64,000 bases of DNA from Blastocatellales bacterium (GCA_050247435.1 JBFWUF010000044.1:321-64320), one strand, 5' to 3'. Positions 8,314-28,998 are shown, numbered from the stretch's first letter. Numbers and translations: made by a program. Notes: generated from the sequence alone by a model not told the origin.

Positions 8314-9591
8314 TTATCTCATTTCTAGTCGAACGGCGAGGTGGGACGAATCTTCAAAGAGGCCTATCTGCGCTGTTGATCCCAGCGCTTCCGCCCAACG
8401 CTCTTCAAACCATGCGAAGCCGTGTCGAGTCTTGGAAGCGACCGTCGCGGGCGCAACAACGAAGAATTCCTCGACCGTCGGGTAGCGCTCTAACTCGCGC
8501 TCGCGGACATATCCGTACAGGATGCTGTGTTCGGCTTTGACAGGAAGACCGGATGCGATTTCAGCAAAATGACTGGCAATCTCCTGGCGAGGTCCCGTTA
8601 CCAGCTTTTCAACTGCGCGGTCAGCGTGTCCCGGCGCTTTGTAGATGCGGCGCACGCGGTAGAGCGCATACTGGCAGGTCTTCAGCGCCTGCTCAAATTC
8701 TGCGAGTGCTACTTGGTTCCCATCGTCAATCATAATCGAACGAAGCGTTCGGTTGCGGTAGAGCGTCCCACGCGGATTGAAGCATAGACTTTGGTGTTCC
8801 AGCATCAGCGATTCAGCAACCTGCGAGGGAAACCGGCGCAATCGAGCGATGCCAGCGCCGGTCAGCTTATTGAAGGGGCAGTAAACGCAGGCGCTCTTGA
8901 ACCAATCCTCGCCGGTTACTTCTTTCAGATAACGTTCGCACTCAGATCGGGTCCATCGCCAATCATGAGCAAGCGGATACCAGCCGAGCCGTTGAGGAGT
9001 GTCATACTTCTGCGCTTTGATAATTCTCCGCTCCTCGTCAACGTTGAATCCGAAGACGACGCGGACAGATTCACGATGAGCGAAAGCGCGTTCGCTTTTA
9101 TCAATCCGCTTTTGTTCTTCGGCGGAAAAGCCGAAGGCGTGACAGTAAGACTGATCCGTCATTTCTTGCGCTAACCATGCTTCAATTACCCAGGCTTTGA
9201 ATTTCAAACTGCACCTATGCTCACCAGCGTATTGAGGAACAGTGCCAGCGGCGCGTAGTTCGTCACTCAGCTTGTATGCGCCTTCGAGATGAATTCGATC
9301 GGGACTCCGCGTATCGCTCATTACGACGATTCCATCAGCTTCCAGATGACCGGCGCGAGCGACCTGCACATATCGAACCTTGCGCGCGCGCATTCGAGGC
9401 AGGGGATGTTGAGAGATCAGATGTCCGGTGTCAGGATACTCATCGCCCGTCTGGGCCGTGATCACGATCAGATCCTCGGCCAGATCGAAATCTCGCGATT
9501 GACTCTCCTCTAGCCATCTCATTAAGAGCGCGGAGGACTCCACTCCCATGCCGAAGCTGAGTATCACCTTCGATCTCTGATCGCTTGTCAT
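8314..9591 (-). CDS. PAPS-reductase-like / PP-loop ATP-pyrophosphatase family protein (DndC/BrxP-like fold)
   Basis: N-terminal ILSFGMGVESSALL is a variant of the SGGxDS PP-loop. Length ~425 aa. Fold-level call only. Confidence 0.55.
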   Translation of the reverse strand: MTSDQRSKVILSFGMGVESSALLMRWLEESQSRDFDLAEDLIVITAQTGDEYPDTGHLISQHPLPRMRARKVRYVQVARAGHLEADGIVVMSDTRSPDRIHLEGAYKLSDELRAAGTVPQYAGEHRCSLKFKAWVIEAWLAQEMTDQSYCHAFGFSAEEQKRIDKSERAFAHRESVRVVFGFNVDEERRIIKAQKYDTPQRLGWYPLAHDWRWTRSECERYLKEVTGEDWFKSACVYCPFNKLTGAGIARLRRFPSQVAESLMLEHQSLCFNPRGTLYRNRTLRSIMIDDGNQVALAEFEQALKTCQYALYRVRRIYKAPGHADRAVEKLVTGPRQEIASHFAEIASGLPVKAEHSILYGYVRERELERYPTVEEFFVVAPATVASKTRHGFAWFEERWAEALGSTAQIGLFEDSSHLAVRLEMR

Positions 9592-9618: not shown

Positions 9619-10137
9619 TTAACTGGATTGACTAGAGGCAGTGGCTTTGCTCAGACGCGCTCTGGCTTCCATCGGAGAAGGCGCAACCAGACCTACTGTG
9701 CGCAAGAGCGCCCAGATTTGCGCATACAACCCACCCGTCGTCCATTCGCGCGCAATCGCTTGAAGGCCGCGACCGCTTCTGAGGTCAGCCTCGCGTTGGC
9801 TCATGCGACAATGGAAAAAAGCGCAGCCGAATGGGCTGACGGCGTGGATAGCACACCGCTTGTTCGCATCCAGGAACTTGCATGTTTGATCGGGCTTTCT
9901 TTGAGGGACAAGAGTCGGAATGCGCATAATCTCCCCTGCCACGCTCACAATCGCTCCGGGGCTCGCCAGCAGATTTTCCATGGCGAATTGAACCAGGTTG
10001 TCATAGCCAAGATGGGCGGCGATCATTTCGATGTCAGAAGGGATCAAGTATCCCGGAATAATTTCACAATTGGTAACGCACTCTCCGCACGCGCATTCTG
10101 TGCGAATGAATCCGAATTCGATTCTGGTCGGCTCCAT
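9619..10137 (-). CDS. Cys-rich hypothetical protein (possible YkgJ-type Fe-S/Zn-chelating domain)
   Basis: ECACGECVTNC cluster plus additional Cys and His residues. AAGGAG RBS 7 nt upstream. Confidence 0.5.
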   Translation of the reverse strand: MEPTRIEFGFIRTECACGECVTNCEIIPGYLIPSDIEMIAAHLGYDNLVQFAMENLLASPGAIVSVAGEIMRIPTLVPQRKPDQTCKFLDANKRCAIHAVSPFGCAFFHCRMSQREADLRSGRGLQAIAREWTTGGLYAQIWALLRTVGLVAPSPMEARARLSKATASSQSS

Positions 10138-10155
10138 CGCTTACGCTCCTTTTTC

Positions 10156-10392
10156 TTAAAAATCCGGCCAATCGGGTGGATCGTCGTCACTGTCTTTCAC
10201 CAAAGTGAGGTGAGCGGGCTTGCGGATTACAGACGGTATGTCAGGTTCCACTGCGATCTGTCGCGCCAACTCCTCCCGCTCATCAATATCTGTTTCTACG
10301 ACAGAGAAAGGATCGTCGCCGGTCTGAGCCGCGCCATTACCGATCATTTCCTCTGGCACATTGAGACGGTCGTCCTTCTCCTCATCGTTCAT
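10156..10392 (-). CDS. small acidic hypothetical protein (78 aa)
   Basis: GAGGAGGG RBS. Highly acidic (D/E-rich). In an operon with the two genes downstream. Confidence 0.5.
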   Translation of the reverse strand: MNDEEKDDRLNVPEEMIGNGAAQTGDDPFSVVETDIDEREELARQIAVEPDIPSVIRKPAHLTLVKDSDDDPPDWPDF

Positions 10393-10405
10393 ACCTTTGC
10401 CCTCC

Positions 10406-11608
10406 TCAAGCCAGACAAGGCATCAGGATGTAGCGCGTGACATACCCGTCGTCAGTGGTCGGGCGCAGTTCCACCAAAGAGTTTTCGTCGTTGTATTTGA
10501 TCGTCAGCGCCGAGCCGGACAGCGCGCGGGCGAAATCCTGGAGGTAGCGGCCGTTGAAGCTGATTGTCGTCTCCACATTAACGGCGGAAGAGAGCGGGAT
10601 GATCTCTTCTTTGCCTTCGCCGCCGGTGGGATCAACGCTGAGCAGTTCGTGCCTGTCTGGCGAGAAATGAAACTTGATCATTCCGAATTCCCGATTGCCT
10701 CCATCTACGCCGAAGACCGACATCCGGTTGACCACTTCTTTGAACGCCTGGCAATCGAGCGTAAGTTGGCGCTCGAAGCTTTTTGATAGAAGCGGCTCGC
10801 AATCGGGATATGCCCCGTCGCGTAATACGCAAGAAAATCGTCGGGCGCCGGCGCCGAAGAACAATCGGTTCAAATCGAGGCCGATATCCACTTCGCCTTC
10901 GGATGAGCTAAAGACTTTGGCAATCGCGCTCAAGCTGCTTCGCGGGATGAGCAGCGTAATTGCTTTGTCTTGAGTGATGTCCAGCCTCTCGACGCAAATC
11001 AGACGATGACCATCCGTGGCGATCATCCGCGCGCCATTGGGACCGATAGTCAACTGCGCAGTGTCGAGCGCATAGCGGCCTGAATCGCCGTTCCTTTGCG
11101 CGGCAAATAGGGATGACTGAATCAATTTCAGCAGGATGTCGCGCGGTATTTTCGTGAACGGTTCGGCGGCTGCCGGCGCTTCGGGAAATTCGTCCGGCGA
11201 AATCGCATTGAGTTTGAACCGGCTGGCGCCGCATTTCAGCAGGGTGGATCGTTCATCGCCGCTGATAATGATTGTTTCAGCAGGCAATTGCCTGACGATC
11301 TCGTAGAGCTTCCGCGCAGGCAAACAAACGGAGCCCGGTTCAATCACGTCCGCCTCGACCTCGCATTGCAGCGTGTTGTTCAAACTGGCTGCTCTGAGGA
11401 TCAGCCGATCACGAGCGGCCTCGATCAACAGGTAACTGAGCGTCGGCAGCAGGCTCTTTGGCTCAACGATCTCCACCAACAGACTGAGTTCGGCTAACAG
11501 GTCGTTGCGGGCGATATGAATCTTGATGGTCTTACCGACTGCGCCGACCACCTCCCCGAATAGATTTGAAGCTGCGCCTGTCGTCTCGTTGTACGAACTA
11601 TCGAACAT
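10406..11608 (-). CDS. dnaN: DNA polymerase III beta sliding clamp (DnaN-family), island-encoded copy
   Basis: Three-domain beta-clamp signature along the whole length (IKIHIARNDLLAELSLL..., ...RYALDTAQLTIGPNG..., C-terminal LMPCLA). The start is placed at MFDSS with a GAGGAAG RBS. It is embedded among mobile/defence genes rather than in a dnaA-dnaN-recF context, so it is likely an accessory paralog. Confidence 0.8.
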   Translation of the reverse strand: MFDSSYNETTGAASNLFGEVVGAVGKTIKIHIARNDLLAELSLLVEIVEPKSLLPTLSYLLIEAARDRLILRAASLNNTLQCEVEADVIEPGSVCLPARKLYEIVRQLPAETIIISGDERSTLLKCGASRFKLNAISPDEFPEAPAAAEPFTKIPRDILLKLIQSSLFAAQRNGDSGRYALDTAQLTIGPNGARMIATDGHRLICVERLDITQDKAITLLIPRSSLSAIAKVFSSSEGEVDIGLDLNRLFFGAGARRFSCVLRDGAYPDCEPLLSKSFERQLTLDCQAFKEVVNRMSVFGVDGGNREFGMIKFHFSPDRHELLSVDPTGGEGKEEIIPLSSAVNVETTISFNGRYLQDFARALSGSALTIKYNDENSLVELRPTTDDGYVTRYILMPCLA

Positions 11609-11666
11609 ATCGCTTCCTCTTCTCGATTGCGGTTGTCTCGAATTCATTTCTCGGCGTGAAGGTGGA

Positions 11667-12374
11667 TTACTGCTCCTGTAGCGCTACATTCAGACGCTCG
11701 ATCAATGCCGATGCGGCTCTACGCGAAATCTCGCTCAGATTGGCCTGGTACATCTCTCGGCAGGCGGCTTCAGGATCGAGCTTCAGCGTTTTCGCCAGCC
11801 TGTTGATCAAGGCGAGTTGCTTGGGTGAGATCAGGTCGGCCAAAGTTTTTGCTAACGGGTCTCGCGGCGGGGCGGTCGGTGCCCTGTTTCCACTTCGACT
11901 CGCCGAATCATTCGATCCATCTTCGTCGCGATAAAGATCACGCGCGACGCCGAATTTGACCGCGGCTCGTTTGAGCGCGTCGTGCTCTGCCTTCTTGATG
12001 CCGGTCTCGCTGTCGGCCGGCCCTGTGCCTACGCCCTCGCGCGTCACGCCGTTAATTGTGATCGCGGCGGTCACCGCGACGAAATCTCCGATCTGAACGA
12101 TGTTGCGGACGGCGTGCGACCAATCGGGAACGATTCTATCGAGCAGGTCAGCTACAACGTGCCATTCGACATAATCAACGTAATGCGTCTGGCCATTGCG
12201 GTCGCGCCAGCCCTCGCGCTGCTTTACATCTCCCTTCCTGATGCCCTCGCTCAGTCGTTTGAGCAGGGCTGAGAAACCGATCTCCGCGCCGGATTGTTGA
12301 TGAGCGGGTGTCACAGAGGTTTGCGCCGCCGGAGCCAATTTGATTGATGCGTGTTGGTTGCTGTTGGCGTTCAT
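11667..12374 (-). CDS. Rad52/Rad22-family single-strand annealing protein (Sak/DdrA-like recombinase)
   Basis: GWRDRNGQTHYVDYVEWHV ... GVTREGVGTG ... ETGIKKAEHDALKRAAVKFGVARDLY matches the Rad52/22 core. The start is placed at MNANSNQ (AAGGAA RBS). Confidence 0.7.
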   Translation of the reverse strand: MNANSNQHASIKLAPAAQTSVTPAHQQSGAEIGFSALLKRLSEGIRKGDVKQREGWRDRNGQTHYVDYVEWHVVADLLDRIVPDWSHAVRNIVQIGDFVAVTAAITINGVTREGVGTGPADSETGIKKAEHDALKRAAVKFGVARDLYRDEDGSNDSASRSGNRAPTAPPRDPLAKTLADLISPKQLALINRLAKTLKLDPEAACREMYQANLSEISRRAASALIERLNVALQEQ

Positions 12375-12499
12375 CGCTTCATTTCCTTTCGATTCGCGAT
12401 TTGGTTCGGATGAAAAATGCCGTAATCGCTCACGCCGCCATCCGCTCATCTTTTTAATCCGGAGGTGTGATCTGGTGAGTTGCTCCTGGACTGAAGAGG

Positions 12500-12910
12500 T
12501 TATCGAGGTCGGGCGAGGATATTGGTGGGCAGGTAGAGCGCGGGATGATGAATGATCCGCTGGTTGGTCGAACCGCGCCATTCTCCGGCGTTCTCTGAAA
12601 GCTCTTTGACGAAGGGGCCATCAATCAGAATGTCCGAGAGTTCAAGAATCCGCCTGATTGTCCGATCATTGCGGTTTGCCAGGTCATCCAGCATATAGCC
12701 TGTGTAAAGTGTGATGTGCTGGCCGCGCTGTCTGAGTAATTGCATCAAGACCAACAACCCTTGCGGTTGCAGAAACGGCTCTCCGCCGAGGATGGTCACT
12801 CCGTCACGAGGCGCGCCTTGCGGATCGAGCAGGCGCTCGATGATTTCGCTGACTTTCATTTCGACGCCGCCGTTGATGTCGTGAGTTTCAGGAACGAAGC
12901 AAGAAGTTAT
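12500..12910 (-). pseudogene. 3' fragment of a radical-SAM NrdG/YjjW-like activase gene (C-terminal ~135 aa), displaced by the insertion to its right
   Basis: The frame is open from the stop at 12913 and reads ITSCFVPETHDINGGVEMKVSEII...ILGGEPFLQ.... This aligns with residues ~110-230 of the intact paralog at 13169..13861 and begins exactly after the expected third Cys of CxxxCxxC. Confidence 0.65.
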
Positions 12911-12920
12911 CTACAGTCTG
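12907..12920 (+). repeat. 14-bp terminal inverted repeat, left copy (TTATCTACAGTCTG)
   Basis: Exact reverse-complement match to 17150..17163. Both copies lie precisely at the break points of the split rSAM gene. Confidence 0.75.
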
Positions 12921-12979
12921 GGCGGGAATGATACGATTTGATCGATAAGTATGCTCTCTCTATTGGAGTTATTCTCCCA

Positions 12980-13050
12980 GCAGTCCATTGAGTGTTGCAA
13001 GCTTGAAGCGAGCGGAGCAAGCGTAAAGCTTGCAACACTCAATGGACTGC
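12980..13050. repeat. perfect palindrome: 25-bp arms (GCAGTCCATTGAGTGTTGCAAGCTT / AAGCTTGCAACACTCAATGGACTGC) with a 21-nt loop
   Basis: Read directly from the sequence. It lies inside the insertion, 60 bp from the left inverted repeat and downstream of the intact rSAM gene. No T-run follows, so it is not a canonical intrinsic terminator. Confidence 0.9.
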
Positions 13051-13168
13051 TCGCAGCCGCGCTGCTATGTTCACGGCGGATTTCCTCAATCCTTTCCGGG
13101 AGGCGTTGAAATCTCTGTCTACTCTTTTCGCTCAAGGCGAGGAGCAGTCTTATGGAGACGCAACATGT

Positions 13169-13861
13169 TCAGCATAGAACGATCTGACCTCTGCTGCGCG
13201 TCGCCGTGAGGTCGATCACCCGCTGGTTGCCGCTGCCAGTCCAGGCGCCAGCGCTGCCGGCCAGCGCCTCGATGTATGGGCCATCAATGAGAATGTCCAA
13301 CTCGTTGAGTGCATCGCTAATCGCAGGCTGCCGTTTGACTCGCTCTCGCAGGGCCTCGTAGGTGTATCCGCTGTAGCACAAGATGTGTGAACACCCGCGC
13401 GCACGCAGCTCACGCGCCAGCGCCAGCAATGCGTTAGGCTGTGCGAACGGCTCCCCGCCCAAAATGCTTATGCCGTCCCGATCGTAATTGGGGTCAAGCA
13501 AAGCTGCCGCTAAACAGTTCGCGGGAACCAGCACGCCGGCGCTCGAGTCGTGCAATTCAGGGACCCAGCATCCTTTGCACGCCAGGGGACACGATTGGAA
13601 CAACACGGAGCTGCGCCGTCCCGGCCCTTCCGTGAGCGAGTTATGGTAGTAGCCTGTGATGCGCACGCACTCGCTTGCCGCTCTCTCATCAGCCGTGGCG
13701 ACAGGCGGCGGCAGCACCTCGATTGGACGGGCGCAGCCGATCTCCCGCGCCGCGCCCGCAAGCTCTGTTAGATGGTTCAGCGTTTCCTCTGAAAGACGGT
13801 CGGGCCCCTCGATTAACATTGCGCCATTCAGTTCATCCACGATGATCGAAATCTCCGGCAT
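13169..13861 (-). CDS. radical-SAM organic-radical-activating enzyme family protein (NrdG/YjjW-like, COG0602), intact copy with a ~50-aa N-terminal extension
   Basis: YHNSLTEGPGRRSSVLFQSCPLACKGCW carries the CxxxCxxC motif and the GGEPF motif follows. The start overlaps the recombinase stop by 29 nt. Confidence 0.75.
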   Translation of the reverse strand: MPEISIIVDELNGAMLIEGPDRLSEETLNHLTELAGAAREIGCARPIEVLPPPVATADERAASECVRITGYYHNSLTEGPGRRSSVLFQSCPLACKGCWVPELHDSSAGVLVPANCLAAALLDPNYDRDGISILGGEPFAQPNALLALARELRARGCSHILCYSGYTYEALRERVKRQPAISDALNELDILIDGPYIEALAGSAGAWTGSGNQRVIDLTATRSRGQIVLC

Positions 13862-16093
13862 GCGATTCAGCCCCTTTCGTATTTGCGTTCGCCAATACGC
13901 CCTTTGCCGACCGCTCTTCTTCTTGTATCTGCAGTGGCGCGCCGCCGAGTGTTGTAATGCTGCGTTCGATCCCGTTGATTGCGCTGCTCATCTCGCGATC
14001 GAGTTCCTGTTTGCGAGCGCCGCCGATCATGCGGCTGCCGATCCCGCGCAGTTCAATGAGGTTTGCTCGTTGACGTTCGAGCAGCGGCAATCCCTCCTGA
14101 TCCGGGATGTAGTTTGGGCAGGAGTGACAAGCCAAACGCGTCTCACACGGGTGGTAGGCGGTTAACCCGCACCAGCCGATACCAAGATCCACAAACAGCG
14201 ATTCACGCCACTGAACCTGAGCTTCGACATGCGCTTCGGGCGAAAGCAAGACACGCACTTGCGCTGTCGCCCGATGCTCTTCATCAATGGCGGCGAAAGC
14301 GGTCTCGAACTCCTGCCGCAAGAGCGGCGGCATGACCGCCGCATAGCGCATCGTCATTCGCAGGCTTTTGTGACCAAGCATCCGGCTGATCGTCTCAATC
14401 CGCATACCACGCGCGCGCCATTGCACGGCCAGCGTGTGGCGAAACTGGTGGCTGGTGAAGGCTGATGAGGTTCCCGCGAGTGCGCAGAGTCGCTTGATAA
14501 AACAATTGAGTAGATGGGGACTAAGAGGGTGGCCCTTCCACGTGAAAAGCAAATCGCGCGTCTTATCTGTGCGCTGGTCGAGGGTCGCGGGCTGTCGTCC
14601 ACGCCTAGTCATCCACTCGTCCACTGCGGTGACTAGTTGCGGTCTGACGGGAATCATCCTGTCATTATGCAACTTGCCAATCGGAACTCGCAGCCAGTGT
14701 GTTTGCTCGCCAGTTTGTTGATCCTGTGTTGCCATCAGGCAGCCGGTATCAAGCCGACAGAGCTCGCCAGCTCGCAACCCGCACTCGAATAACACCGCGA
14801 AGATGGCGCGCAATCGCTCGAATGGCTGCGGCAGCTTGTATTCGGCGGCTAAGTCCAGTGTGAGGCGCTCAACTGTGTCGACCAGCAAGCGCCAATCAGC
14901 GTCAGGAATCGCTCGCGGCAGTTCTTCATCCAGCCGTGGCGTGTCGCCGCGCACCCATAGCTTGCGTCCAGGCCGCTCCGGATATTCCAAGGCGTCGATG
15001 TGCTCGCAAAGGACTCGCACACAGGAAAGCGCGCGCACTTGATGAGCGCGTGAAAGCGGTTCGCCAACATTGACCGTCCGGAATTCCTGCCCGACATTAG
15101 TGTAATCGCCGCATCGCATCTCCTTGACTGCGCGTTTGTATGCCTCGATGTGTGTGCGGCGTAACTCCGCGACCGACTGCAGTGAAGGGGCATACTCGCC
15201 GAGCCAGTCGCCAAAGCGCCGCAGGCTTACACGGTAACTATTGACGGTCCCCGGCGCCCGGATCGTTTTCATGTCATCGAGAAATCGCTCGAAGGTGGCC
15301 ACGATGCCAGGCGCAGTACGTCCCCACCCGAACTTGTCAGGCGGCGCGAATCCTGTCAGGCGCGGCGCCTCGCCACCAAGGTGTCCCATCGCGGCGAGCA
15401 CTTTTTGAATGCAAGTGACACTTCCGTATGCGACGCGCTTTGTGCGACGGGTGTGAGCTTGCCAGCCCTCGAGGTCGGCTTTAGTCAATTCTGCGACATC
15501 GATCTTACCGGAGAAAACGAGAACAGAGAGCAGCACGCCAACTACATGCTTGCGCAGCGAAGGCGTGTACCGATAGCCGATGCCTTCTGCCGCCTGTATG
15601 AAACGCTCGGCAATCCGGTCGGCCCGTTCTTTGCCGAGCCATCTGTCCGCCAGGTGACGATGGTAGGTCTGGTAGATCTCTTCGCTGTAAGGCAGCACGC
15701 CGAGAAAGAAGAGCGTTGAAGTTAATCGCGCCCAATTGGTGGCCAGCGCTTGCCGCCAGATTTTCGGTCGCTGCGCTTCCCGTTCCAGCAGCGCTTGCTT
15801 CCAGGCCAGCAGCTTCTCCCAGTTGAAATCCCAGTAAGTGCAGTTCAGTTCCAGCATGATCTGCGCGCATAAGTGAATAGCGTGGCTGAGATAGCATTGA
15901 TGCAGATGTGGCGGTGCGTCGCGGATGGTGAATTCATAATAGGCTCGTTTGAACTGCGCGAACAAATCTTCAAGCGCCGCCATTTCAACCTTCGAGTATC
16001 TGCTTTTGGCAAGGGCCTCACGTTCGTGGTCACGAAGCTTCAGAGGTCTTGCTATAAGGATGGCATCATTCACATTTGCCGTCTGGTTCATCA
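13833..16093 (-). CDS. large tyrosine recombinase/integrase (Tn554 TnpB-like), ~753 aa
   Basis: C-terminal catalytic region HQFRHTLAVQWRARGMRIETISRMLGHKSLRMTMRYAAV (R..H-x-x-R...Y). The start is placed at MMNQTANV (AAGGAG RBS), 28 nt inside the upstream gene's end. The long N-terminal region is unassigned. Confidence 0.8.
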
Positions 16094-17124
16094 TTTCTCC
16101 TTTTGGTTGCGCCGGTCGAGCTGACTCGCTCGGTTTTGCACGCCGCCATAGCCTGAAGATATTCGCGCTGTAAGCGCCCGTCACGTATCTCGTTGTAGAT
16201 GAGCGTCGTTTCAATACGACGGTGACCGAGCTGACGTTGTAGAGCGTCAAGAGGCATGCCGGCTTCTGCCAGATTGGTGGCGCACGTGTGACGAAAGGCA
16301 TGGGCGTGAACACGCGGCGTGCCGGCTTTCTGGCGCGCCTGTTCGCAGACATAAACCCACCCGCGGTAGCTGAACGGTTGCCCGAAGTTGCGCCTCCCCA
16401 GACAGACGAAGACGTAGTCGTGATCAAGTCGTTGCGGGCGTTCCAGCCGGATGTAATTGCCGAGCGCATTCAACGCGTCTTCACTGAGCGGCACGATCCG
16501 GGAATTATGGCTCTTCGTCGAGCGAACGGTGACGCGGTGTCCCGCCCAGTGGATGTCGCCGAGTCTTAAATCGAGAGCTTCGCTGATGCGTACGGCCCCA
16601 TCCTTCAACAGAAAGACAATGGCGCGGTCGCGATGGCTGGACGCGGTGAGTTGAGCAATGAAACGATCAACTTCGTCAGCGGTGAGTGTCTCCGGGTGCA
16701 GGCGGTCATAGTGAAGGAGCGCAGGTTGTCCGGTAATGACGCCAGCAGCGGCGCGCAAACTGGCGCCGCCCGGCACAGGATTGCGATGAACGCCGGTCAG
16801 TTCCGGTTCAAGAGAGAGGAAGTTGTACCACTGCCTAATCGCGGCTAACCGCCGGACGATTGTGCGAGCGCTCACTGTTGCGTCCTCGTGAATAACCCGC
16901 TCACGTTCAGAGCGGATGAAGGCAATGATATGACTCGAACGGGCGGCCAACGGGTCGAGGCCGGATTTGTTGCAGAAGCTCAACCACCGCTTGAGGTCGT
17001 GGCGGTAAGCGCGGACGGTATTCTCCGGACGGACAATGGCAAGATCGGCAATGAATCGTTCGATCCAGCCTGCGGCGTTGCCTGGTTGTATGGGAGCGCT
17101 TGGTTCGTTTTGTCGTTCTGTCAT
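16066..17124 (-). CDS. tyrosine recombinase, XerC/XerD-like (Tn554 TnpA-like), 352 aa
   Basis: N-terminal SAM-like core-binding domain (TVRAYRHDLKRWLSF) and catalytic HAFRHTCATNLAEAGMPLDALQRQLGHRRIETTLIYNEI. Confidence 0.85.
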   Translation of the reverse strand: MTERQNEPSAPIQPGNAAGWIERFIADLAIVRPENTVRAYRHDLKRWLSFCNKSGLDPLAARSSHIIAFIRSERERVIHEDATVSARTIVRRLAAIRQWYNFLSLEPELTGVHRNPVPGGASLRAAAGVITGQPALLHYDRLHPETLTADEVDRFIAQLTASSHRDRAIVFLLKDGAVRISEALDLRLGDIHWAGHRVTVRSTKSHNSRIVPLSEDALNALGNYIRLERPQRLDHDYVFVCLGRRNFGQPFSYRGWVYVCEQARQKAGTPRVHAHAFRHTCATNLAEAGMPLDALQRQLGHRRIETTLIYNEIRDGRLQREYLQAMAACKTERVSSTGATKRRNDEPDGKCE

Positions 17125-17134
17125 GGGCGCTATC

Positions 17135-17452
17135 TTAAGTCGCCCACCTCAGACTGTAGATAAAGTTCGGACATCGAGTCAAACATCCGGAGGTTTGCAG
17201 TACGCTGCGCCTGCCTGGTCCTTCGACCACTGAGTTGTGGTAGATGCGGAAGACGCGTAGAGATGGCCCGCCGTTTAAAGTTGCCGAATTGCGTAGAGGC
17301 ACAATATTGATCGGTCGTGCGCAGTTAACAGATTTGCCCGACGGTAAAATGTCCTCGGCTAGTTCTTTCAGCTCTGATTGCCGTAGCCCCTCAACTGTCA
17401 TTTCGCCGCTGAGAACGTCAATAATCCACGTCGTCTCTCTCATCGGCCTCAC
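17135..17452 (-). pseudogene. 5' fragment of a radical-SAM NrdG/YjjW-like gene (N-terminal 105 aa, truncated within the CxxxCxxC motif)
   Basis: ...RIYHNSVVEGPGRRSVLQTSGCLTRCPNFIYSLRWAT* is homologous to the N-terminus of the intact paralog, including the 50-aa extension. It reads through the right inverted repeat and stops 11 bp before the recombinase start. Confidence 0.65.
17150..17163 (-). repeat. 14-bp terminal inverted repeat, right copy (CAGACTGTAGATAA on the plus strand)
   Basis: Reverse complement of 12907..12920. Confidence 0.75.
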
Positions 17453-17646
17453 ACTTTCTTGTTCTGGATCTGCGGCCTGACATTTGGGCGGGCGTAGAAC
17501 TCCTTGGTGTTCTCTTCGTGTTCCGGCGCGCCAGTCAGCTCAGTGACGATCTTGGCGACGTCCGCGCACTGCGGCCCCTGAACGCCTTCCACCTTCATCT
17601 CCATCTCGCCGGTCTGCTGGTCAATCGTGAAATTGATTTCGGGCAT
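17449..17646 (-). CDS. DUF2997-family small protein (65 aa)
   Basis: MPEINFTIDQQTGEMEMKVEGVQGPQCADVAKIVTELTG fits the short DUF2997 pattern (small beta protein with a conserved Cys), as recalled from memory. It overlaps the next gene by 4 nt. Confidence 0.55.
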   Translation of the reverse strand: MPEINFTIDQQTGEMEMKVEGVQGPQCADVAKIVTELTGAPEHEENTKEFYARPNVRPQIQNKKV

Positions 17647-17661
17647 TGTTTCACTCCTTCT

Positions 17662-18061
17662 TCAGTAACGGACCTTGATCTTTACGACGCCGCCCTCGAC
17701 CGTGCGATGCGCTGTTCCGCGCAATCGAGCCGCCACTTTGCTGACGACGCGCTCGTTGTATGCGGCGCGAAGACGTGGGAGGAACTGGCCGTCCAGCGCG
17801 CGGCGGCGGTCGAGTTCGTCCATCACCGGCCTGTAGGCGCCGTTTTCAGTTCGCTCGAAGCCGATGTCGCCGTAATTGTTCCCAATGGAGCTGCGTGGAA
17901 CGATGACGTCCGCCCTTTGCAAGAGCTGTTCGGAGTAGTAGCGCCCCATCTCCAAACTTTCGCCTTGTTTGATCCATTTGCAACCGACGTCTTCAAGAGC
18001 GGCGACGAGCAGATCGCGGTCTTTGAAGACGACTTCGGTGAAGGTCATGTACTTGCTCATT
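17662..18061 (-). CDS. DUF1257-family protein (133 aa)
   Basis: MSKYMTFTEVVFKDRDLLVAALEDVGCKW... resembles the DUF1257 N-terminus (MSHF..IKT.FKD...L..AL.DLGC). The start is placed at MSKY with a GGAGGAAG RBS. The longer track ORF is an upstream extension. Confidence 0.55.
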
Positions 18062-18094: not shown

Positions 18095-19705
18095 TCACAT
18101 CTCCAATGCTCGCGGGCTGCGCATCCGCTCGTTGATCGGCGTGACGCTTGCGCCGCCAGCGCTGATTGCCATGTGATCCTTCGCCCAGTTGCGCAGTGAC
18201 TCGACCTGCTCGCGCTTGATGACGCTCGTGGGTTGAATCTGCCTGGCGCGTTCAGCAATGTCCGCTGTTGTCACTTCACGCTCGCCGTCCATAAACGCGC
18301 GCAGCAGGCCCGCTTTGACCGTCGCCTCGATCTCCGCGCCGGAGAAGCCCTCGGTGGTCTCGGCCAACTCGTCCAGGTCGAAGCTGCCGGAATCGCGCTC
18401 TCGCTTGCGCAGATGCACTGCAAAGATTTCGCGCCGATCTTCAATCGTGGGCAGATCAACGAAGACAATGTGTGAAAAGCGTCCTTGCCGCGTCTGCTCC
18501 GCCGCCAGACCGCGAACGTCGTTGGCCGTGCCGATCACAAACACGTCCGATTGCTCCTGCATCCAGTTGAGCAGGTAGGCGATGGTGCGCGCCGTCTCTC
18601 CACCATCGGTTTTGGCCGATGATTCAAGCCCGCCAACGGCCTTCTCGAACTCGCTGATGCCGAGGATGCCTTTGAGCGTCGTAGCGATGGAAAGAGCGCG
18701 TTTGATCGTCATCGCCGATGATCCGATTACGCCGCCGCCTTCGCCCATCACGCTGCCGAAATCGAGATCGAGAAGCGATTTGCCCAGTACCGACGAAGCG
18801 ATCTTCTTGGTCAGGTCTTTGCCGCAACCGGGCAGGCCGACCATCAGCAACCCCTTCATCGGCTCGACTCCGTAAGCGCGCGCAGCGGGAGTGAATGTCG
18901 CCGCAGCTTCGGTCAGAATCTGTCGTAGGTTGTGATAGCCGCCGAGATGATCCGCAGGCTCGGCGTGCGTGTAAGTGAGCGCGCCTGTCCCCTTAATGAC
19001 CGACTTCTTCTCGTCGAGGATTACGGGCAGGGCCTCAGCAGTGAGACCATTGCCGCTGATGATGGCTTTCGCCAGCACGTTCTCGATGTCCGATTCGGTC
19101 AGTCCGAGCAGAGCCTGGACGAGCTGTTCCCGGAGCCGCTCGTCAACCTCGACACGAACCTCGCCGGCTTTGAGGTTTTGCATCTGCGCATCGAGCATCG
19201 CAGTCACTTCGCGTTCATCTGGCAGCGGAAGCTCTATGACCTTGATCTCCTTTTCCAAAGCTGAGACGTCGGGCAAGTTTCGCTCGACAAACAACACGTT
19301 GATGTGTCGCCCTTTGATCTCCCACGCGAGTTCGCGCAGCCGGCGGACCAGTTGCGGGTCTTCCTGGCCATACGGCGCGAAATAGGGACTGTAATCGCAG
19401 AGCACGAACAGTCCTTTCTTCTGCTGAGCGATGTACTCAAGCGCGCTCATTGCGTCCTGCGTGTCAGGGATCAGAATCTCTTTCTGACCCTTCAGTTCGG
19501 CGCCGAGAACCTGCCGCAGGCCGGTCGTGCGACTCCAGATAAACAAGCCTTTCTCTTTCTCGCGATGACACTTCAACCGTGCGACCGCGCTCATGATGCG
19601 GTGAAAGCGTCCTTCCTCCGGCGTGTTGACCGCGATCAGCGGGTAGCGGGCGCGGATCAACACGTCGAGTTCAGTAACGATCTTTTCCAGATTTTCCTGT
19701 GACAT
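18095..19705 (-). CDS. AAA+ ATPase (CDC48/FtsH-like AAA module in the C-terminal half), 536 aa
   Basis: GLLMVGLPGCGKD (Walker A, with the unusual GKD), sensor-1 region VFVIGTAND, Arg-finger-like RQGRFSHIVFVDLP. GAGGAG RBS. Confidence 0.75.
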   Translation of the reverse strand: MSQENLEKIVTELDVLIRARYPLIAVNTPEEGRFHRIMSAVARLKCHREKEKGLFIWSRTTGLRQVLGAELKGQKEILIPDTQDAMSALEYIAQQKKGLFVLCDYSPYFAPYGQEDPQLVRRLRELAWEIKGRHINVLFVERNLPDVSALEKEIKVIELPLPDEREVTAMLDAQMQNLKAGEVRVEVDERLREQLVQALLGLTESDIENVLAKAIISGNGLTAEALPVILDEKKSVIKGTGALTYTHAEPADHLGGYHNLRQILTEAAATFTPAARAYGVEPMKGLLMVGLPGCGKDLTKKIASSVLGKSLLDLDFGSVMGEGGGVIGSSAMTIKRALSIATTLKGILGISEFEKAVGGLESSAKTDGGETARTIAYLLNWMQEQSDVFVIGTANDVRGLAAEQTRQGRFSHIVFVDLPTIEDRREIFAVHLRKRERDSGSFDLDELAETTEGFSGAEIEATVKAGLLRAFMDGEREVTTADIAERARQIQPTSVIKREQVESLRNWAKDHMAISAGGASVTPINERMRSPRALEM

Positions 19706-21774: not shown

Positions 21775-21836
21775 GTCACTGCCACAGGCTCAACTGAGCG
21801 GGTTGATTCGTGCGATGAGCGGCGGAAGGTTTGCGC
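21775..21836. repeat. 62-bp direct repeat, copy B (authentic 3' end of the helicase-C gene: ...AAHRTNQPAQLSLWQ*)
   Basis: See copy A. Confidence 0.8.
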
Positions 21837-23335
21837 CCGCTCTTTTGTGGCGCCTGATCCCGTAAATCGTCGAGCGTGATTTGACGGCGAGATAGCTCCC
21901 CGTCGCCAGCGGCGACCGCTTTGAGTGAAGATTCTTTCTCTTCCGAGTGAGATGGCGCCGTCTGATCGTCCACTGGTTGGGCTGATGTGACTGAAACAGG
22001 AGTAATCTCGAGTTGGGCGGAGACCGCCTCGGATGGCTGAACGGATTCCTCAACGCCTGGCGCGCAATTTCGGAGCGCGTCTTCCTCGAGGGCTATGAAT
22101 TCCTGTCTGTCATCAATCTGCGAACCGTCTTCTTTGAGCGATTGATTGACGCGTCGAAACTGCGCCTGAAGCTCCTCGTACTTCCGCGCGTAGTCCCATC
22201 CTCTGGCCAACTCCTGCTCAATCGTCCGCTGTTTATGTTTGAGGTCCGCCTGATTTTTCAAGGCGCGTTGAAGGTGGGCGTCAATCGCGTTGAGCTGCGC
22301 GTCAATGGATTGGATTGTTCCCTGCGCCGATTCGCCGAAGTTGAATGTGTAAAGCAGCTTGCTGTCCGGCGCGCACAGGGATCCTTCGACTGACGTGAGA
22401 AATGTTTCGCCAAACTCCCGCTGACGTTTCGCCAGGATTTGGAAGCCGCGATAGGCGCCGATCAGGCAATATTCAAAATCGAGCCTCATCCCAATCTCAC
22501 GGCGGAGCTTGTCGAGATGCTCTCCGGCTTGCGGGCGCTGATCAAATTTGAGCCATTCATCGCGACCGATAGATCGCTTGAGTTTGATCGCGAACGCGCC
22601 ATCGGGGAATGAGTTTCGATCACGGATGGCGAGAGCCTGCTCATGACCGGCGACGCGCTGGTCAGCTTCGCGAATCCTGTCCGGCAACGATTCAAGCTCC
22701 CATTTCAGATTGCGGCGGCCGTTGCGCCAGACAATGTAAAGACGTGACAAGCGCGCGAGTTCGACCTCAATGGAGACTCTTTCGAGGATACGCGGATTGC
22801 CGCTGGCGATGGCTTTGACCTGCGCTGCCGTCATCACCATATCGTCCACATCTTCGGATGACCGAGCCGTCACTTCGCCAGCCATTATCTGGCTGATGAA
22901 CCGGGCTTTGTTCTCCAGCGTCTGCCACATGAAGCCGTCGAAGGAGCCTTCCGTGACGTAATTGAAAATTCTGACCTCAGGATAGCGGTTGCCTTGACGC
23001 AAGATGCGGCCTTCGCGCTGCTCTACATCAGCCGGACGCCATGGGGCATCGAGGTGGTGGAGCGCATACAACCGCTCCTGCATGTTGACGCCCGTCCCTG
23101 CCTTTTCCGTGCTGGCGATCATCACGCGAATCTTTCCGGCGATCGCTTCCGCGAAAGCTCTGGCCTTTTTCGCCGGGGTGTCGAAGTCGTGAATGAAGGC
23201 GATCTCGCCAGCGGGGATGCCGCGCCTGATCAACTCGCGCTTGATCTCACCGTAAATGCCCAGCCGGTCAAGACGCTCACTTTGCGTTTCGATGACACGA
23301 CCGTCCTCTTCAACGATGATTTCTTCGTTTGTCAT
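21776..23335 (-). CDS. SNF2-type helicase C-terminal domain protein, the C-terminal part of a DarB-like methyltransferase-helicase
   Basis: Helicase motifs V/VI: GTGVNMQ ... LHHLDAPWRPADVEQREGRILRQGN. Confidence 0.75.
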   Translation of the reverse strand: MTNEEIIVEEDGRVIETQSERLDRLGIYGEIKRELIRRGIPAGEIAFIHDFDTPAKKARAFAEAIAGKIRVMIASTEKAGTGVNMQERLYALHHLDAPWRPADVEQREGRILRQGNRYPEVRIFNYVTEGSFDGFMWQTLENKARFISQIMAGEVTARSSEDVDDMVMTAAQVKAIASGNPRILERVSIEVELARLSRLYIVWRNGRRNLKWELESLPDRIREADQRVAGHEQALAIRDRNSFPDGAFAIKLKRSIGRDEWLKFDQRPQAGEHLDKLRREIGMRLDFEYCLIGAYRGFQILAKRQREFGETFLTSVEGSLCAPDSKLLYTFNFGESAQGTIQSIDAQLNAIDAHLQRALKNQADLKHKQRTIEQELARGWDYARKYEELQAQFRRVNQSLKEDGSQIDDRQEFIALEEDALRNCAPGVEESVQPSEAVSAQLEITPVSVTSAQPVDDQTAPSHSEEKESSLKAVAAGDGELSRRQITLDDLRDQAPQKSGRKPSAAHRTNQPAQLSLWQ

Positions 23336-23336
23336 T

Positions 23337-23362
23337 ATTGTGATTGGCGATTGTGATTGGCG
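23337..23362. repeat. 13-bp tandem direct repeat x2 (ATTGTGATTGGCG ATTGTGATTGGCG)
   Basis: Lies immediately 5' of the start codon of the helicase-C ORF in the 38-bp gap after the 136-aa ORF. No Shine-Dalgarno there. Confidence 0.85.
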
Positions 23363-23373
23363 GCAGGAAGGTT

Positions 23374-23784
23374 TTAGTAAGAGCAGTCGGTGCAGACACT
23401 GCCCAGCTCGGCTGTGCGATTGTAGATTTCCCCAAGCGTGAGAGTCACGCTCTGTCCTTCGGAGTTGATCGCATAGGCTTCACCGATAAGATAGCGCATC
23501 TTTTCAGAGCCGATCTCCATCACTACCGCGACGTAATCAGGCGCCAAATGTTCGGCTAGCAAGCTGAGGAAATCCACGCCATCCCACTCACCCGATTCGT
23601 CGTTGTGACGGGTAAGCGGAATGCCCGCCTCATTCCCGCTATTGAGAAATCCATAAAGAACCACATCGCCTTCGGACTTGGTAATCATTTCGAGACTGAA
23701 CTCTTCGCAAAATTTCTTGAACAATTCCACGTCTTTGACCGCAAAGTAGTTTGATCTGAAAGTCGCAGTGTAATTAGCCATCAC
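23374..23784 (-). CDS. hypothetical protein (136 aa) encoded between the two halves of the split methyltransferase-helicase
   Basis: GTG start overlapping the upstream stop (GTGATGGCTAA). No recognisable motif. Confidence 0.4.
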   Translation of the reverse strand: MMANYTATFRSNYFAVKDVELFKKFCEEFSLEMITKSEGDVVLYGFLNSGNEAGIPLTRHNDESGEWDGVDFLSLLAEHLAPDYVAVVMEIGSEKMRYLIGEAYAINSEGQSVTLTLGEIYNRTAELGSVCTDCSY

Positions 23785-26700
23785 CGTTGCTCCTTTCTGT
23801 CAGCCTGTCGCTTCGACCCTTCGGAGTCGAAACGTCCAAAAACACAAGCTGCACGCCGCGAGTATTTTGGGATTCGCGATAGAGCCGTTCGATGTTGTCA
23901 ACGAGCGCCATCACCTTCGACCGCGCAGGGCGAGGTGAATCCGGTTTGACGAGCCGGATGTCGAGAGCGGCCTTCCGTCCATCGCTCGTCACCTTCAACA
24001 TATTGTCAGCGTGCGGTGAGACTCGGCGGCCCTTGATGGCTTCCACCCGGCGGGCAAGTTCGTGGACGTACTTCTTTAATTCATCGCTGGCCGGAACGCT
24101 GACGATCTCAGGTCTGCCGCCTTTGAGCTTTGGTCGAGGCAGATTCAATTCGGCGGCGGATTTAACATCCAGCGCCTGCTGCCAGAGCTTGGAAAGTTCG
24201 GGAATGTTGGTGAATTTGTTGAAACGCGTGTTCATTCGGAACCCTGACCCGTCCGGCGTCATCTCCAGCGACTGTGTGGTTTCGGCGAACTGCTGAACCC
24301 AGGCGTCGAAGTGGTCGAGGCCAAGCTCCTGCAAGGTTTCAAGCTGAAGATACTTCTGGCAAACGTAGACTTCGGCGAGGGTGTTACTCACCGGCGTGGC
24401 GGTGGCGCAAATTACGCGCCCGCCGTTTTCCAAAACTGAGCGCACTTTGATAAAGCAGTCAAACGCGCGCTGTGAATCGGTATTGGGTAGCCCAGCGACG
24501 CGGCTCATCTTTGTCGGGCAATAGAGATTCTTGTAGTAGTGGAATTCGTCAATGAAGAGCGTATCAATGCCCAACTCTTCCCAGGTGATCGTGTCGCTGG
24601 CGATGCGTTTGATTTGTTGATTGGCGCTGTCGAGTCTCGCCTTGAGCTTTTTGATCGCGCGCTGAATCTCCTTGACGCTGCGTTTGTTGTTGCCACTGGC
24701 CGACTCGAAATCTTCAAGATACTCGGTGAGCGTATCAATCTCCTGCTGAATGTAGCCCCTGGCAGTATCGGGATTGAGCGGCAGCATCTTGAAGGCAGTC
24801 TGGGGGATGATAATGGCGTCGTAATCCGAGGTGGCGATTCGGCTGAGCAGTTCGCCGCGTTGGGACGCGGTCAGATGCTCCTTGCCGGGAGCGAGTAGTC
24901 GAATGTTCGGATATAAACGAATCGCTTCGGCGGCCCATTGCGCGGGCAGATGATTCGGAACCACGATCAGCGATTTGTGACAGAGGCCGAGACGTTTGAG
25001 TTCCATCGCCGCAGCGATCATCGTGAATGTCTTGCCCGCGCCGACACAATGTGCGAGCAGTGTGGCCTTTGATTGGAGGATTCGCCAGATGGAATTATTC
25101 TGGTGAGAGTAGAGCGTGATGTCGGCGGACATCCCGGGCAGCGCGAGATGGCCGCCATCGTATTCGCGCTTGCGATAAGCGTTGAACCTATCGTTATAGA
25201 TTCTGACGAGAGTCGCCGCCCGTTCGTCATCTTGCCAAACCCATTTGGCGAACCGCTGCTTGATCTCAAGCTGTTTGGCTTGCGCGGCGATGGTCTCATT
25301 ATCGTTGACGACGCGGCGCACGCCGCCGTCGGCGTCTCTGACTTCGTCGGTGATCGTTGTTGTCCTCAAGTTGAGTATGTCTTCGATCAGCTCAAAGGCG
25401 TTCGCCCGCGAAGTTCCCCAGGACTGCGTCGCCTCTACGGAAGAGCGGGACCAGGCGCTGTTGTTCTCGATCTTCCAGATGGCGAGCGCCGGGATGAATG
25501 TAACCTTGCCGTTGAATGATGGGACGAGCGATGAAACGAAGTCGCTGACGACCTTTTCGGGAACCCACGCCGATCCGAGTCTGACGATGATCTCGTCGCG
25601 TCCGAGATCGGCGGGTTGAACGGCTTTCAGCGCCTCGACGTTCTTCTGAAACCTCGGATTGAATTGGGCGGCCCGCTCAGCCTCGCGCAGCTTCTGTCTG
25701 ACCTCGCCGGACAGGTAGTCATCGGCCGTAGTGAACTCGCCGCTCGGCGTTTCATAAATCAGCCCATCGAGCGCGGCGAGAACCTCCGGCTCCGGCTGTT
25801 GGCACAATCTGACGATGTAATCGAGGTCAACCCGGCCTTTGTCATTCAGCGAAACAAGCAAGGCCTCCTTCGGCGCGCATCTGGTCGGTTGTTGGCGCGC
25901 CGGACGAATCGTCCGTTCGGAAAAGAGAGGCGCCTTGTTGTAGCGGTTCTTCCCGACGGGAATTTCCAAAGCTTTGAGAAAAGGAACGACAGGGCTGTGC
26001 GGACTGAGCTTTTTGACGTTCCCATTGATCGGACCGAAGCGCATCTTGAATTGGGAGTAGGCATCGGAGAGTTCCTGTTGTTTCTCCTTCAACTCGTCAT
26101 CCGAGGCGTCGCGGAGTTGCAGCCTGATGACCTCTTTGGCCGCGACGTAAATCCTGAGCAGTTCGTTGACGCAGGTTCGGTCACGTTCCGAAAGCTCACT
26201 TTGATCCGTTGCCGCCAGGAAATCCTCCCGGTCGGAAAGCGGGCTGCCTGTTTCAAGCTCAGCCTGTACGGCGAAAGCGCAATAGCCGTTGGCGGGAAGC
26301 TGCGCGATCAGTGTCTGCGCCAGACTCGCTGCGAGATCACGGCCATCATCCTTGAGCAAAAACTCCTCGCGCTCATACATCCCGCGCCCAAAGCAAGGCT
26401 GGCCGAGCATCCATTCGGGATGAGCGATGAAGAGTTTGTTGACGCATATTTCACGCTCGTCTTCCTCATTGTCGCTAAGCGTGATCTCGCCGACATCAAT
26501 CCAATCATCTTGCGACGCCCGCAACGATTGAATGCGTTTGCGGAGGATCAACACGTCCGTAACGACTTCAGTTCCTGCATTGGCCCGGAAAGCGCTGCGT
26601 GGCAGACGCGCCGCGGCGAGAAGCTCGGCGTGAGTCGCCAGATATTGCCGAACCTTCGGCGATTTCTTGTCGAGCGTGTACCTGGACGTGATGAAGGCGA

Positions 26701-28281: not shown

Positions 28282-28998
28282 GTGAGTGATCATTTGCCAA
28301 AAGCCATCGTGCTGCTGAGCGGAGGGCTTGATTCCGCAACGACATTGGCCATTGCCAAGAGTCAATGGTATGAAATCCACGCCCTTACTTTCAGATACGG
28401 ACAGCGGCATGAATTCGAAATTGAGGCGGCGCGAAAAATCGCTGGCCATTTTGGCGTAGCGCAGCATGTCATTTCACAGATTGATTTACGGGCGTTTAGG
28501 GGTTCAGCCTTGACCAGCGACATTGAAGTGCCGAAAGGGCGTTCGCTGGAGGATATGTCTGAAGGCATTCCCATCACATACGTACCCGCCCGAAACACGA
28601 TCTTTCTATCATTTGCGCTGGCGTGGGCCGAGGTGGTCGGGGCCAGCGACATCTTCATCGGCGTCAATGCGCTGGATTACAGTGGCTACCCGGACTGCCG
28701 ACCAGAATACATTGAGGCTTATCAAGAGATGGCGAACCTGGCTACGAAAGCCGGAGTCGAAGGCCGCCAGCGACTTAAGATTCACACTCCGCTTATCCAC
28801 CTGACAAAGGCCGAAATTATCCGACAGGGGCTTGAACTCGGGGTTGATTATTCTATAACCAGCACCTGTTATGACCCGTCATCAACGGGAGAAGCCTGTG
28901 GTCAGTGTGACGCTTGCTTTTTGCGGTTGAAAGGATTTGCGGAAAACGGCGTCCCTGATCCGGTGCGATACCGAACAGAGGCGAGACCGGGAGCGTGA
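28282..28998 (+). CDS. queC: 7-cyano-7-deazaguanine synthase QueC
   Basis: [12 protein letters not shown]-loop and C-terminal Zn site CGQCDAC. GTG start with a GAGGAGG RBS. Confidence 0.9.

Follow-up and report, generated by a model that had tools for sequence, protein, structure and literature searches.

The 64,000-nucleotide stretch of Blastocatellales bacterium DNA analysed here (GCA_050247435.1 JBFWUF010000044.1:321-64320; hereafter the window) contains a gene for a radical S-adenosylmethionine (rSAM) protein that is split by an insertion, and the insertion encodes two tyrosine recombinases and an intact second rSAM gene, here called the passenger. All genes between 11.6 and 21 kb are on the minus strand. 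The first in order is a 434-amino-acid (aa) open reading frame (ORF), followed by the genes of the host operon: an AAA+ ATPase (18095..19705; Pfam AAA and AAA_lid_3), a DUF1257 protein (17662..18060; PF06868, E = 1.7e-6), a DUF2997 protein (17449..17646; PF11211, E = 1.1e-7), and, as its last member, the split NrdG-like rSAM gene (the resident gene), whose start is overlapped by the stop codon of the DUF2997 gene.

The resident gene is cut between the second and third cysteine codons of its CxxxCxxC motif. Its N-terminal fragment (17165..17452, minus strand) has 96 codons, or 93 when counted from the start of the intact ortholog P0092, with which it is colinear; it ends in ...GCLTRCPN and is followed by a single T at 17164. 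The truncated ORF itself runs on to 105 codons (17452-17135) and reads ...EGPGRRSVLQTSGCLTRCPN and then FIYSLRWAT*, the last 9 codons (17135..17164, minus strand) being the left end of the element; the same FIYS... read-through is seen in three related loci (L008, L012, and L002). At the right junction, CAGACTGTAGATAA-CTTCT is followed by TGC TTC GTT..., that is, by CFVPETHD..., which opens a C-terminal fragment of 133 codons plus stop (12500..12901, minus strand; Pfam Fer4_12, 7.7e-22). In silico removal of 4,263 nt yields an uninterrupted ORF of 229 aa with the restored target sequence ...TGTCCGAACTGCTTCGTT..., and the joined pieces align end to end with the passenger (42% identity, E = 7e-53).

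The original prediction, made from the sequence alone, had placed the break inside the cluster motif with these same protein ends, and the translated pieces read accordingly. Some of its figures needed adjustment: 105 codons is the length of the truncated ORF, but not of its resident part; the C-terminal fragment was located correctly, but begins at 12901 and not at 12910 and has 133 rather than about 135 codons; and the separation of 4.26 kb resolves into 4,257 bp from repeat to repeat plus 6 extra bases, 4,263 bp in all.

The element is bounded by a perfect inverted repeat of 14 bp. The 14-mer TTATCTACAGTCTG occurs at the two predicted junctions (12907-12920, plus strand; 17150-17163, minus strand) and nowhere else in the 64 kb, where even with 2 mismatches no further copy was found (chance expectation, 0.08). 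In gene orientation, the left terminal inverted repeat (IR-L) reads TTATCTACAGTCTG and the right one (IR-R) CAGACTGTAGATAA. Six bases, CTTCTT (12901..12906, minus strand), lie between IR-R and the resumed gene, and the last T is at the same time the first base of the third cysteine codon.

Between the repeats lie the three overlapping genes that had been predicted, all on the minus strand: a small, XerC/D-like tyrosine recombinase of 352 aa (16066..17124; Pfam Phage_integrase, 4.3e-36, and Phage_int_SAM_1; NCBIfam XerD/XerC matches below cut-off), a large tyrosine recombinase of 753 aa (13833..16094; Pfam Phage_integrase), and the passenger of 230 aa with an intact CxxxCxxC motif (13169..13861; Pfam Fer4_12, 5e-28). 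Both overlaps are 29 nt long. The large recombinase consists of a confidently predicted helical N-domain (residues ~20-240), core-binding and catalytic domains, and a C-terminal four-cysteine segment that is invariant within the family; in an alignment of 22 sequences, the positions R...HxxR...H...Y are likewise invariant. Both recombinases are Xer-like by sequence and fold, and fold searches with the large one returned Xer/integrase folds only, with no assignment for its N-terminal helical domain. No conserved ORF beyond these three was found in the window element.

Only 10 nt separate the stop codon of the truncated host ORF from the ATG of the small recombinase, and at locus L002 the truncated ORF even extends beyond that start codon. 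A scan for hybrid promoters gave a single candidate at the left junction (TTGACT-18-TACAGT), with counts not above those of shuffled sequences and a -35 box specific to this target. The 262 nt between the passenger and IR-R contain a long hairpin (12974..13056; 36-nt arms, 89% complementary). It was considered as a conserved recombination or terminator element and rejected, as it is unique to the window copy: minimal elements such as L012 and L016 lack a hairpin altogether, and the one that follows the passenger in other copies is different and GC-rich.

Matches to Fer4_12/Radical_SAM were obtained for both the C-terminal piece and the passenger. By their profile scores, both rSAM genes appear NrdG-like, without assignment to the NrdG equivalog: TIGR02491 gives 115 bits for P0092 and 94 bits for the passenger, both below the cut-off of 126. 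No glycyl-radical partner was identified within the operon. A suspected relation of the rSAM N-terminal extension to DUF2997 found no BLAST support. An 89-kb contig in ENA carries a single 304-aa protein call (P0099) that joins DUF2997 to the rSAM domain, be it through fusion of the genes or because two calls were merged. As to the function of the operon, PADLOC gave only generic IetA-like AAA matches, and the literature on DUF1257 and DUF2997 is uninformative.

An empty site in a syntenic relative

The joined resident protein matches several hundred intact relatives, and rSAM homologs number about 700. The best of them, P0092 (223 aa, 93% aa identity), has the motif GCLTRCPNCFVPETHD as in the window and is encoded on a metagenome contig (L013) that is syntenic with the window over an SNF2-like helicase, a Helicase_C protein, the 434-aa ORF, AAA+, DUF1257, DUF2997, and the intact rSAM gene. 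This contig supplies the uninterrupted site that the original prediction had proposed to look for. Its DNA reads TGC CCG AAC TGT TTT GTC, and the occupied site differs from it by the repeat-to-repeat element and 6 further nt, with no direct repeat of the target. Between the window and L013, neighbouring genes have a synonymous divergence (dS) of 0.08-0.55 and a ratio of nonsynonymous to synonymous divergence (dN/dS) of 0.08-0.19, with 0.08 for the AAA+ ATPase; for the resident fragments against the intact ortholog, dN/dS is 0.06 (N) and 0.26 (C). The split is therefore recent relative to the modest divergence of the two loci.

On the same contig, a Tn7-like block (TnsA, TnsB, TniB/TnsC, and TniQ/TnsD; L013:8852-15486) lies between the intact rSAM gene and a Rad52 gene, and the same rSAM gene may thus serve as a landmark for a second, unrelated site-specific transposon.

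Recurrence at one codon

About 90 homologs of the large recombinase were found (44-70% identity). Many are on contigs of 3-5 kb, close to the size of the minimal 4.0-kb element, as is expected because the repeat breaks assemblies. Every long contig examined carries AAA+, DUF1257, DUF2997, the truncated ORF, the small and the large recombinase, and the rSAM gene, usually followed by a Fer4_12 C-terminal ORF. A one-genome-per-species scan gave 14 close loci, mostly labelled Pyrinomonadaceae, Chloracidobacterium, or other Acidobacteriota, with some labelled Chloroflexi; at this one codon, the family recurs in numerous bacteria from soil and sludge.

All 14 distinct left junctions read Cys-x-x, then T, then TTATCTACAGTsTk, and all 11 distinct right junctions read CAsACTGTAGATAA, then CTGCC, CTGCT, CTGCA, CTGGC, or CTTCT, then the TGY of the third cysteine. 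The orientation of the element relative to the operon is constant across the junctions. Within this rSAM-carrying sub-family, the boundary between the second and third cysteines of CxxxCxxC is the only observed target. Recurrence of the arrangement, together with the lack of an empty site and of any repeat-bounded polymorphism, had been named beforehand as an outcome that would speak against an insertion. The arrangement does recur elsewhere, because the element is strictly site specific, but both the empty site and the repeat-bounded polymorphism exist.

From repeat to repeat, the copies measure 4,010-5,430 bp, the excess being accessory cargo: RelE/HTH genes in L002-L007, a BNR protein in L008, and in L038-L040 a third, short Phage_integrase ORF of 219-239 aa between the large recombinase and the passenger (e.g., L039:5280-5999). 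The minimal elements (L012 and L016; 4.0 kb) consist of the two recombinases and the rSAM gene only. The passenger is present in all complete copies examined, and in most loci the resident fragments are open reading frames without stops or frameshifts. Degraded copies were also seen: L021 has lost the right repeat and the C-terminal fragment, L018 the passenger, and in L042 the large recombinase is split.

Nothing in the phage and plasmid collections matched the region by megablast. An exact look-up of the DUF2997 protein gave no record, and one of the passenger nothing but the same contig. A scan of IMG/VR with the large-recombinase alignment gave one distant match only, and hence no sign of the element riding on known viruses.

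Movement between diverged operons and origin of the passenger

In three loci from different samples and assemblies (L002, L003, and L005), the element is 100% identical over 4,926 bp. Their left flanks are 58-93% identical, the right flank of L003 is 45-76% identical, and the identity changes at the repeats. Furthermore, passengers resemble each other more (55-84% identity) than residents do (28-66%), for instance 78% versus 40% for L016 and L002. In the rSAM tree, the residents fall into three clades and the passengers into one; this tree and the end-to-end alignment bear out the earlier claim that the fragments together make up a single gene and that this gene is not the passenger. Within one locus, passenger and resident are 32-60% identical.

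The passenger clade also holds uninterrupted genes that close intact ThiF-...-AAA+-DUF1257-DUF2997-179 aa-rSAM operons (L044-L046), as well as two interrupted residents (L008 and L012). The passenger is thus probably a captured gene of the target type, and its own type is also targeted.

Discussion

The insertion in the Blastocatellales rSAM gene is very probably a site-specific transposon of the kind related to Tn554 and to SEs (integrative elements that circularize with a strand bias), which has been mobile recently and carries an intact homolog of its target. The element is exactly bounded by its repeats, has a constant orientation with the operon, has moved recently between diverged operons, and carries an intact homolog of the gene that it interrupts.

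A homologous recombinase pair is that of Rhodococcus pREL1 (NC_007491; 36% identity, E = 6e-52, for the small and 30% identity, E = 4e-45, for the large protein), which Van Houdt et al. (2012; PMC3414803, Table 2) class as Tn554-like and without TnpC. As in such actinobacterial pairs, the gene order is the same, the short gene overlaps the long one, TnpC is lacking, and the long protein has a C-terminal Cys-rich segment; they differ in that identity is only 30-36% and the large protein aligns only after its first ~250 residues. The window pair is linked to the Tn554 class through this homology; published cfr plasmids carry truncated tnpA/tnpB. As in Tn554-related elements, tyrosine recombinases of ~350 and >600 aa are adjacent and co-directional, with the catalytic residues in both. 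The original prediction had recognized the Tn554 layout of tnpA, tnpB, and a third gene; the pair is indeed homologous to the Tn554-related one of pREL1, but the third gene is the passenger and not a counterpart of TnpC.

With the Tn554 family of staphylococci and enterococci (Tn554, Tn553/"Tn552-II", Tn558, and Tn6674), the element shares a strictly specific target that insertion leaves unduplicated, imperfect inverted repeats at the ends, and a junction spacer of 6-7 bp (PMC10214605; PMC12486829). It differs in its hosts, here Acidobacteriota- and Chloroflexota-type bins, in its target, a catalytic-motif codon of an rSAM gene, and in the right-hand six bases, which follow the element lineage here, whereas in Tn554 they are copied from the left junction of the previous donor. 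According to Idola et al. (PMC10214605), SEs and Tn554 have in common one ordinary and one large recombinase, imperfect repeats of 13-19 bp, a 6-bp spacer, target specificity, and no transfer genes. Indeed, the window element resembles SEs in its two RHRY recombinases, one of them large, in repeats of this kind, in the 6-bp spacer of the joined ends, in its few selected targets, in the lack of mobilisation genes, and in a left junction that keeps the six bases of the target. SEs, in contrast, have four core genes (intA-tfp-intB-srap) and need Tfp and Srap, both missing here, where the recombinases overlap with no gene between them. In SEs, the left hexamer of the donor reappears at the new right junction, whereas the right six are conserved within lineages here. 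SEs leave no empty site, which may or may not hold for this family. The element extends the Tn554-related/SE-like class and is not a new category.

Other recombinase-based elements are more distant. RIT elements and GInts are also multi-recombinase transposons with terminal inverted repeats (PMC10214605, Table 1), and some relatives of the window element have a third short integrase; however, RIT elements encode three overlapping recombinases of 315-410 aa, none of them large, and have 34-bp repeats, as opposed to two recombinases, one of 753 aa, and 14-bp repeats here. Like Xer recombinases and the Xer/dif-exploiting elements (IMEXs), the element has to do with XerC/D-like proteins, and its joined ends would form an 11-6-11 dif-like palindrome (...ATAA / TTAT...), but it encodes its own recombinases and targets a coding sequence little like its ends rather than the chromosomal dif site. 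Elements that integrate into tRNA genes or dusA restore the end of the gene that they enter, and the nifD/XisA and sigK skin elements are excised in development. In all of these, insertion is made harmless to the host; here this would be achieved with a complete, diverged second gene (32-60% identical) and not with a duplicated gene end, and no sign of developmental control was seen. The original prediction had called a replacement copy of the target unusual. Unusual it is, but with a published precedent: the staphylococcal Tn554-type element Tn552-II carries a "target-gene-like" gene (tgl) proposed to rescue the disrupted target (PMC12486829, 2025).

The bases beside the repeats give an indication of how the element is exchanged. 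To the left of IR-L, the adjoining six bases belong to codons of the target itself and mostly read NNGGNT (CGAACT in the window). The right hexamers all start with CT, following the pattern CT[G/T][C/G]N+T, whereas only one of the 14 left hexamers does so. Right hexamers are also common to related elements in different targets: CTGCT in L027 and L028, CTGGC in L008 and L024, and CTGCC in L002, L003, and L005. The invariant CT and the lineage-linked hexamers oppose a Tn916-type model with a target-derived 6-bp coupling sequence on both sides, and equally the "fingerprint" model of Tn554 and SEs (the "att brought in" behaviour reported for Tn554-type elements and SEs in PMC12486829 and PMC10214605). 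Two cycles fit the pattern: the element may exchange the same strand pair both when it enters and when it leaves, or the insertions may stem from a few master copies.

In our model, the two recombinases would bind the 14-bp ends, which in a circular form would be joined as a dif-like 14-6-14 site, CAsACTGTAGATAA-6 bp-TTATCTACAGTsTk. Conservative recombination between this site and the target, with no duplication of the latter, would leave the six bases of the target at the left junction and those of the element at the right junction. Since no promoter is evident and the truncated host ORF abuts or overlaps the small-recombinase gene, the sequence suggests that the element's genes are probably read from the host operon, with the recombinase expressed by translational coupling. 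The passenger, presumably captured from an operon of the target type, would stand in for the destroyed function and keep the cost of insertion to the host low. Some copies would later lose their right end, and the replacement would become permanent.

Several observations weigh against this interpretation. A scan of JGI metagenome contigs for circular joined ends (IR-R, 4-9 nt, IR-L) gave 16 matches, none of them from an rSAM-carrying member; with no circular junction or excision product in this one scan, we infer movement from the comparison of loci. Two of the loci with identical elements, L002 and L005, have an identical right flank and different left flanks, and contigs that cross a 4-5 kb repeat may be chimeric; in the window, the N- and C-terminal fragments both match P0092 and hence belong together. 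The target DNA has little similarity to the repeats, and the hexamer at IR-R is unlike the donor-derived fingerprint of Tn554 and SEs. No gene resembling TnpC, the third small protein that strict Tn554 requires, was found in the window element or in the minimal elements L012 and L016, and no Srap-like gene in the window element. That the operon drives expression of the element's genes and that the passenger complements the lost function are, moreover, predictions.

A different way to account for the locus is a domesticated, programmed rearrangement, that is, a switch kept by the host in which regulated excision rejoins the resident gene and swaps rSAM isoforms, as in nifD/hupL (XisA/XisC) or the sigK skin element. 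Intact resident fragments with low dN/dS, the full ORF restored by exact removal of the insert, a layout conserved and co-oriented with the operon in many taxa, and the identity of only 32-60% between the two rSAM types of a locus, by which a swap could matter, would all agree with such a switch. However, intact fragments are equally expected after a recent insertion, and identical elements in diverged operons, along with empty sites in close relatives, argue for horizontal spread and not for vertical inheritance; an incongruence of element and operon is already suggested by the rSAM tree and the identity comparison. The toxin-antitoxin cargo is typical of selfish elements, decayed copies exist, and a cell could not go back after excision without re-insertion of the circle. 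We therefore consider a host-kept switch unlikely.

It is even harder to reconcile the data with a single ancient insertion or tandem duplication that descended vertically, with the fragments as decaying halves of a pseudogene. Recurrence in several phyla-level bins and the degradation of some copies could be read in this way, but elements that are 100% identical inside the repeats and 58-90% identical outside, an empty site in a relative whose operon genes differ by a dS of only ~0.1-0.5, passengers much more alike than residents, and fragments without stops or frameshifts make it very improbable. Hardly credible is an invertible DNA switch, in which the recombinases flip the 4.2-kb segment and turn the internal genes on and off. 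Perfect 14-bp inverted repeats do surround the recombinase genes, which also have weak NCBIfam matches to tyrosine-type DNA invertases. Inversion in silico, which we recomputed with the outcome given in the original prediction, nevertheless restores no ORF; every locus with both flanks has the same orientation; the hexamers beside the repeats are unrelated (CGAACT versus CTTCTT) and leave no homologous crossover region; and the repeats are the limits of the insertion relative to the empty site.

A more far-reaching form of the site-specific transposon model is possible, although we regard it as doubtful. The element would be a self-compensating "homing" transposon that is fully conservative: with the same strand pair exchanged every time, the 6-bp spacer would stay with the element, and the target would be whole again after its departure. 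As such, it would act as a horizontally moving allele-swapping cassette for the last gene of the AAA+/DUF1257/DUF2997/rSAM operon, with an allele that is 32-60% identical.

Related elements and genomic surroundings

A related element with a large recombinase 55% identical to that of the window was found in a Chloroflexi metagenome-assembled genome (JACQUQ010000107.1; L025:733-4152). It has IR-L at 3056 with the end TTATCTACAGTATG and interrupts an ORF for a PHP/DnaE-like DNA polymerase III alpha subunit at ...AWLKLYYPLESLP|VIYS...; the contig ends before any passenger is visible. The family thus has members with a different conserved target, a hint that conserved motifs in other genes can become targets of the recombinase pair. 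On another contig (Ga0196962_10000143; L058:6770-10068), a small and a large recombinase (65% and 58% identical) are followed by a complete palindromic site, ACTGTAGATAA-TTGCGT-TTATCTACAGT, with no repeat upstream and no rSAM gene; judged by its sequence, this site resembles the attachment site of a larger element before recombination. In L052, L055, and L059, the same 11-6-11 palindrome has distant Xer-like genes (25% identity) beside it.

In the parts 21776-27502 and 28282-48883, the window contains QueC (28282-28998) and FolE2 (30025-30840) followed by very large ORFs, with adjacent helicases that match DpdE/DrmD models and an Eco57I-type methylase domain. This gene content suggests a defence island beside the operon, for 7-deazaguanine DNA modification of the Dpd type or of another kind. 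In L044 (6720-11554) and L045, the intact ThiF-...-AAA+-DUF1257-DUF2997-rSAM operon has Qat defence genes as its neighbours (QatB, a KAP NTPase, TatD, and a Fic protein), surroundings that hint at defence islands as the setting of the AAA+/DUF1257/DUF2997/rSAM operon. The split gene is followed downstream by genes for a Rad52/22-family protein, a DNA polymerase III beta clamp, and a CxxCxxCC protein (9619-12581), then a 425-aa ORF without Pfam match (8314-9591) and a RecD-like helicase (1571-3232). With this set of replication and recombination genes, the whole region may be a larger mobile or plasmid-like island.

Most work on two-recombinase transposons of the Tn554/SE-like kind has dealt with staphylococci, enterococci, and some Gammaproteobacteria, and the family described here extends them to Acidobacteriota- and Chloroflexota-type bins. 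It would be a clear case of self-compensation, an idea previously raised for one staphylococcal element, in which a full, diverged copy of the target is carried along. For annotation it holds a warning: in these genomes, what reads as a shortened rSAM ORF with two "XerC/D" genes and another rSAM gene is a single mobile unit. With a single codon boundary in a Fe-S cluster motif as the target, dif-like ends, and two proteins only, the element offers a model of site recognition, and it could show how Xer-like recombinases become re-aimed at coding sequence that is little like their own ends.

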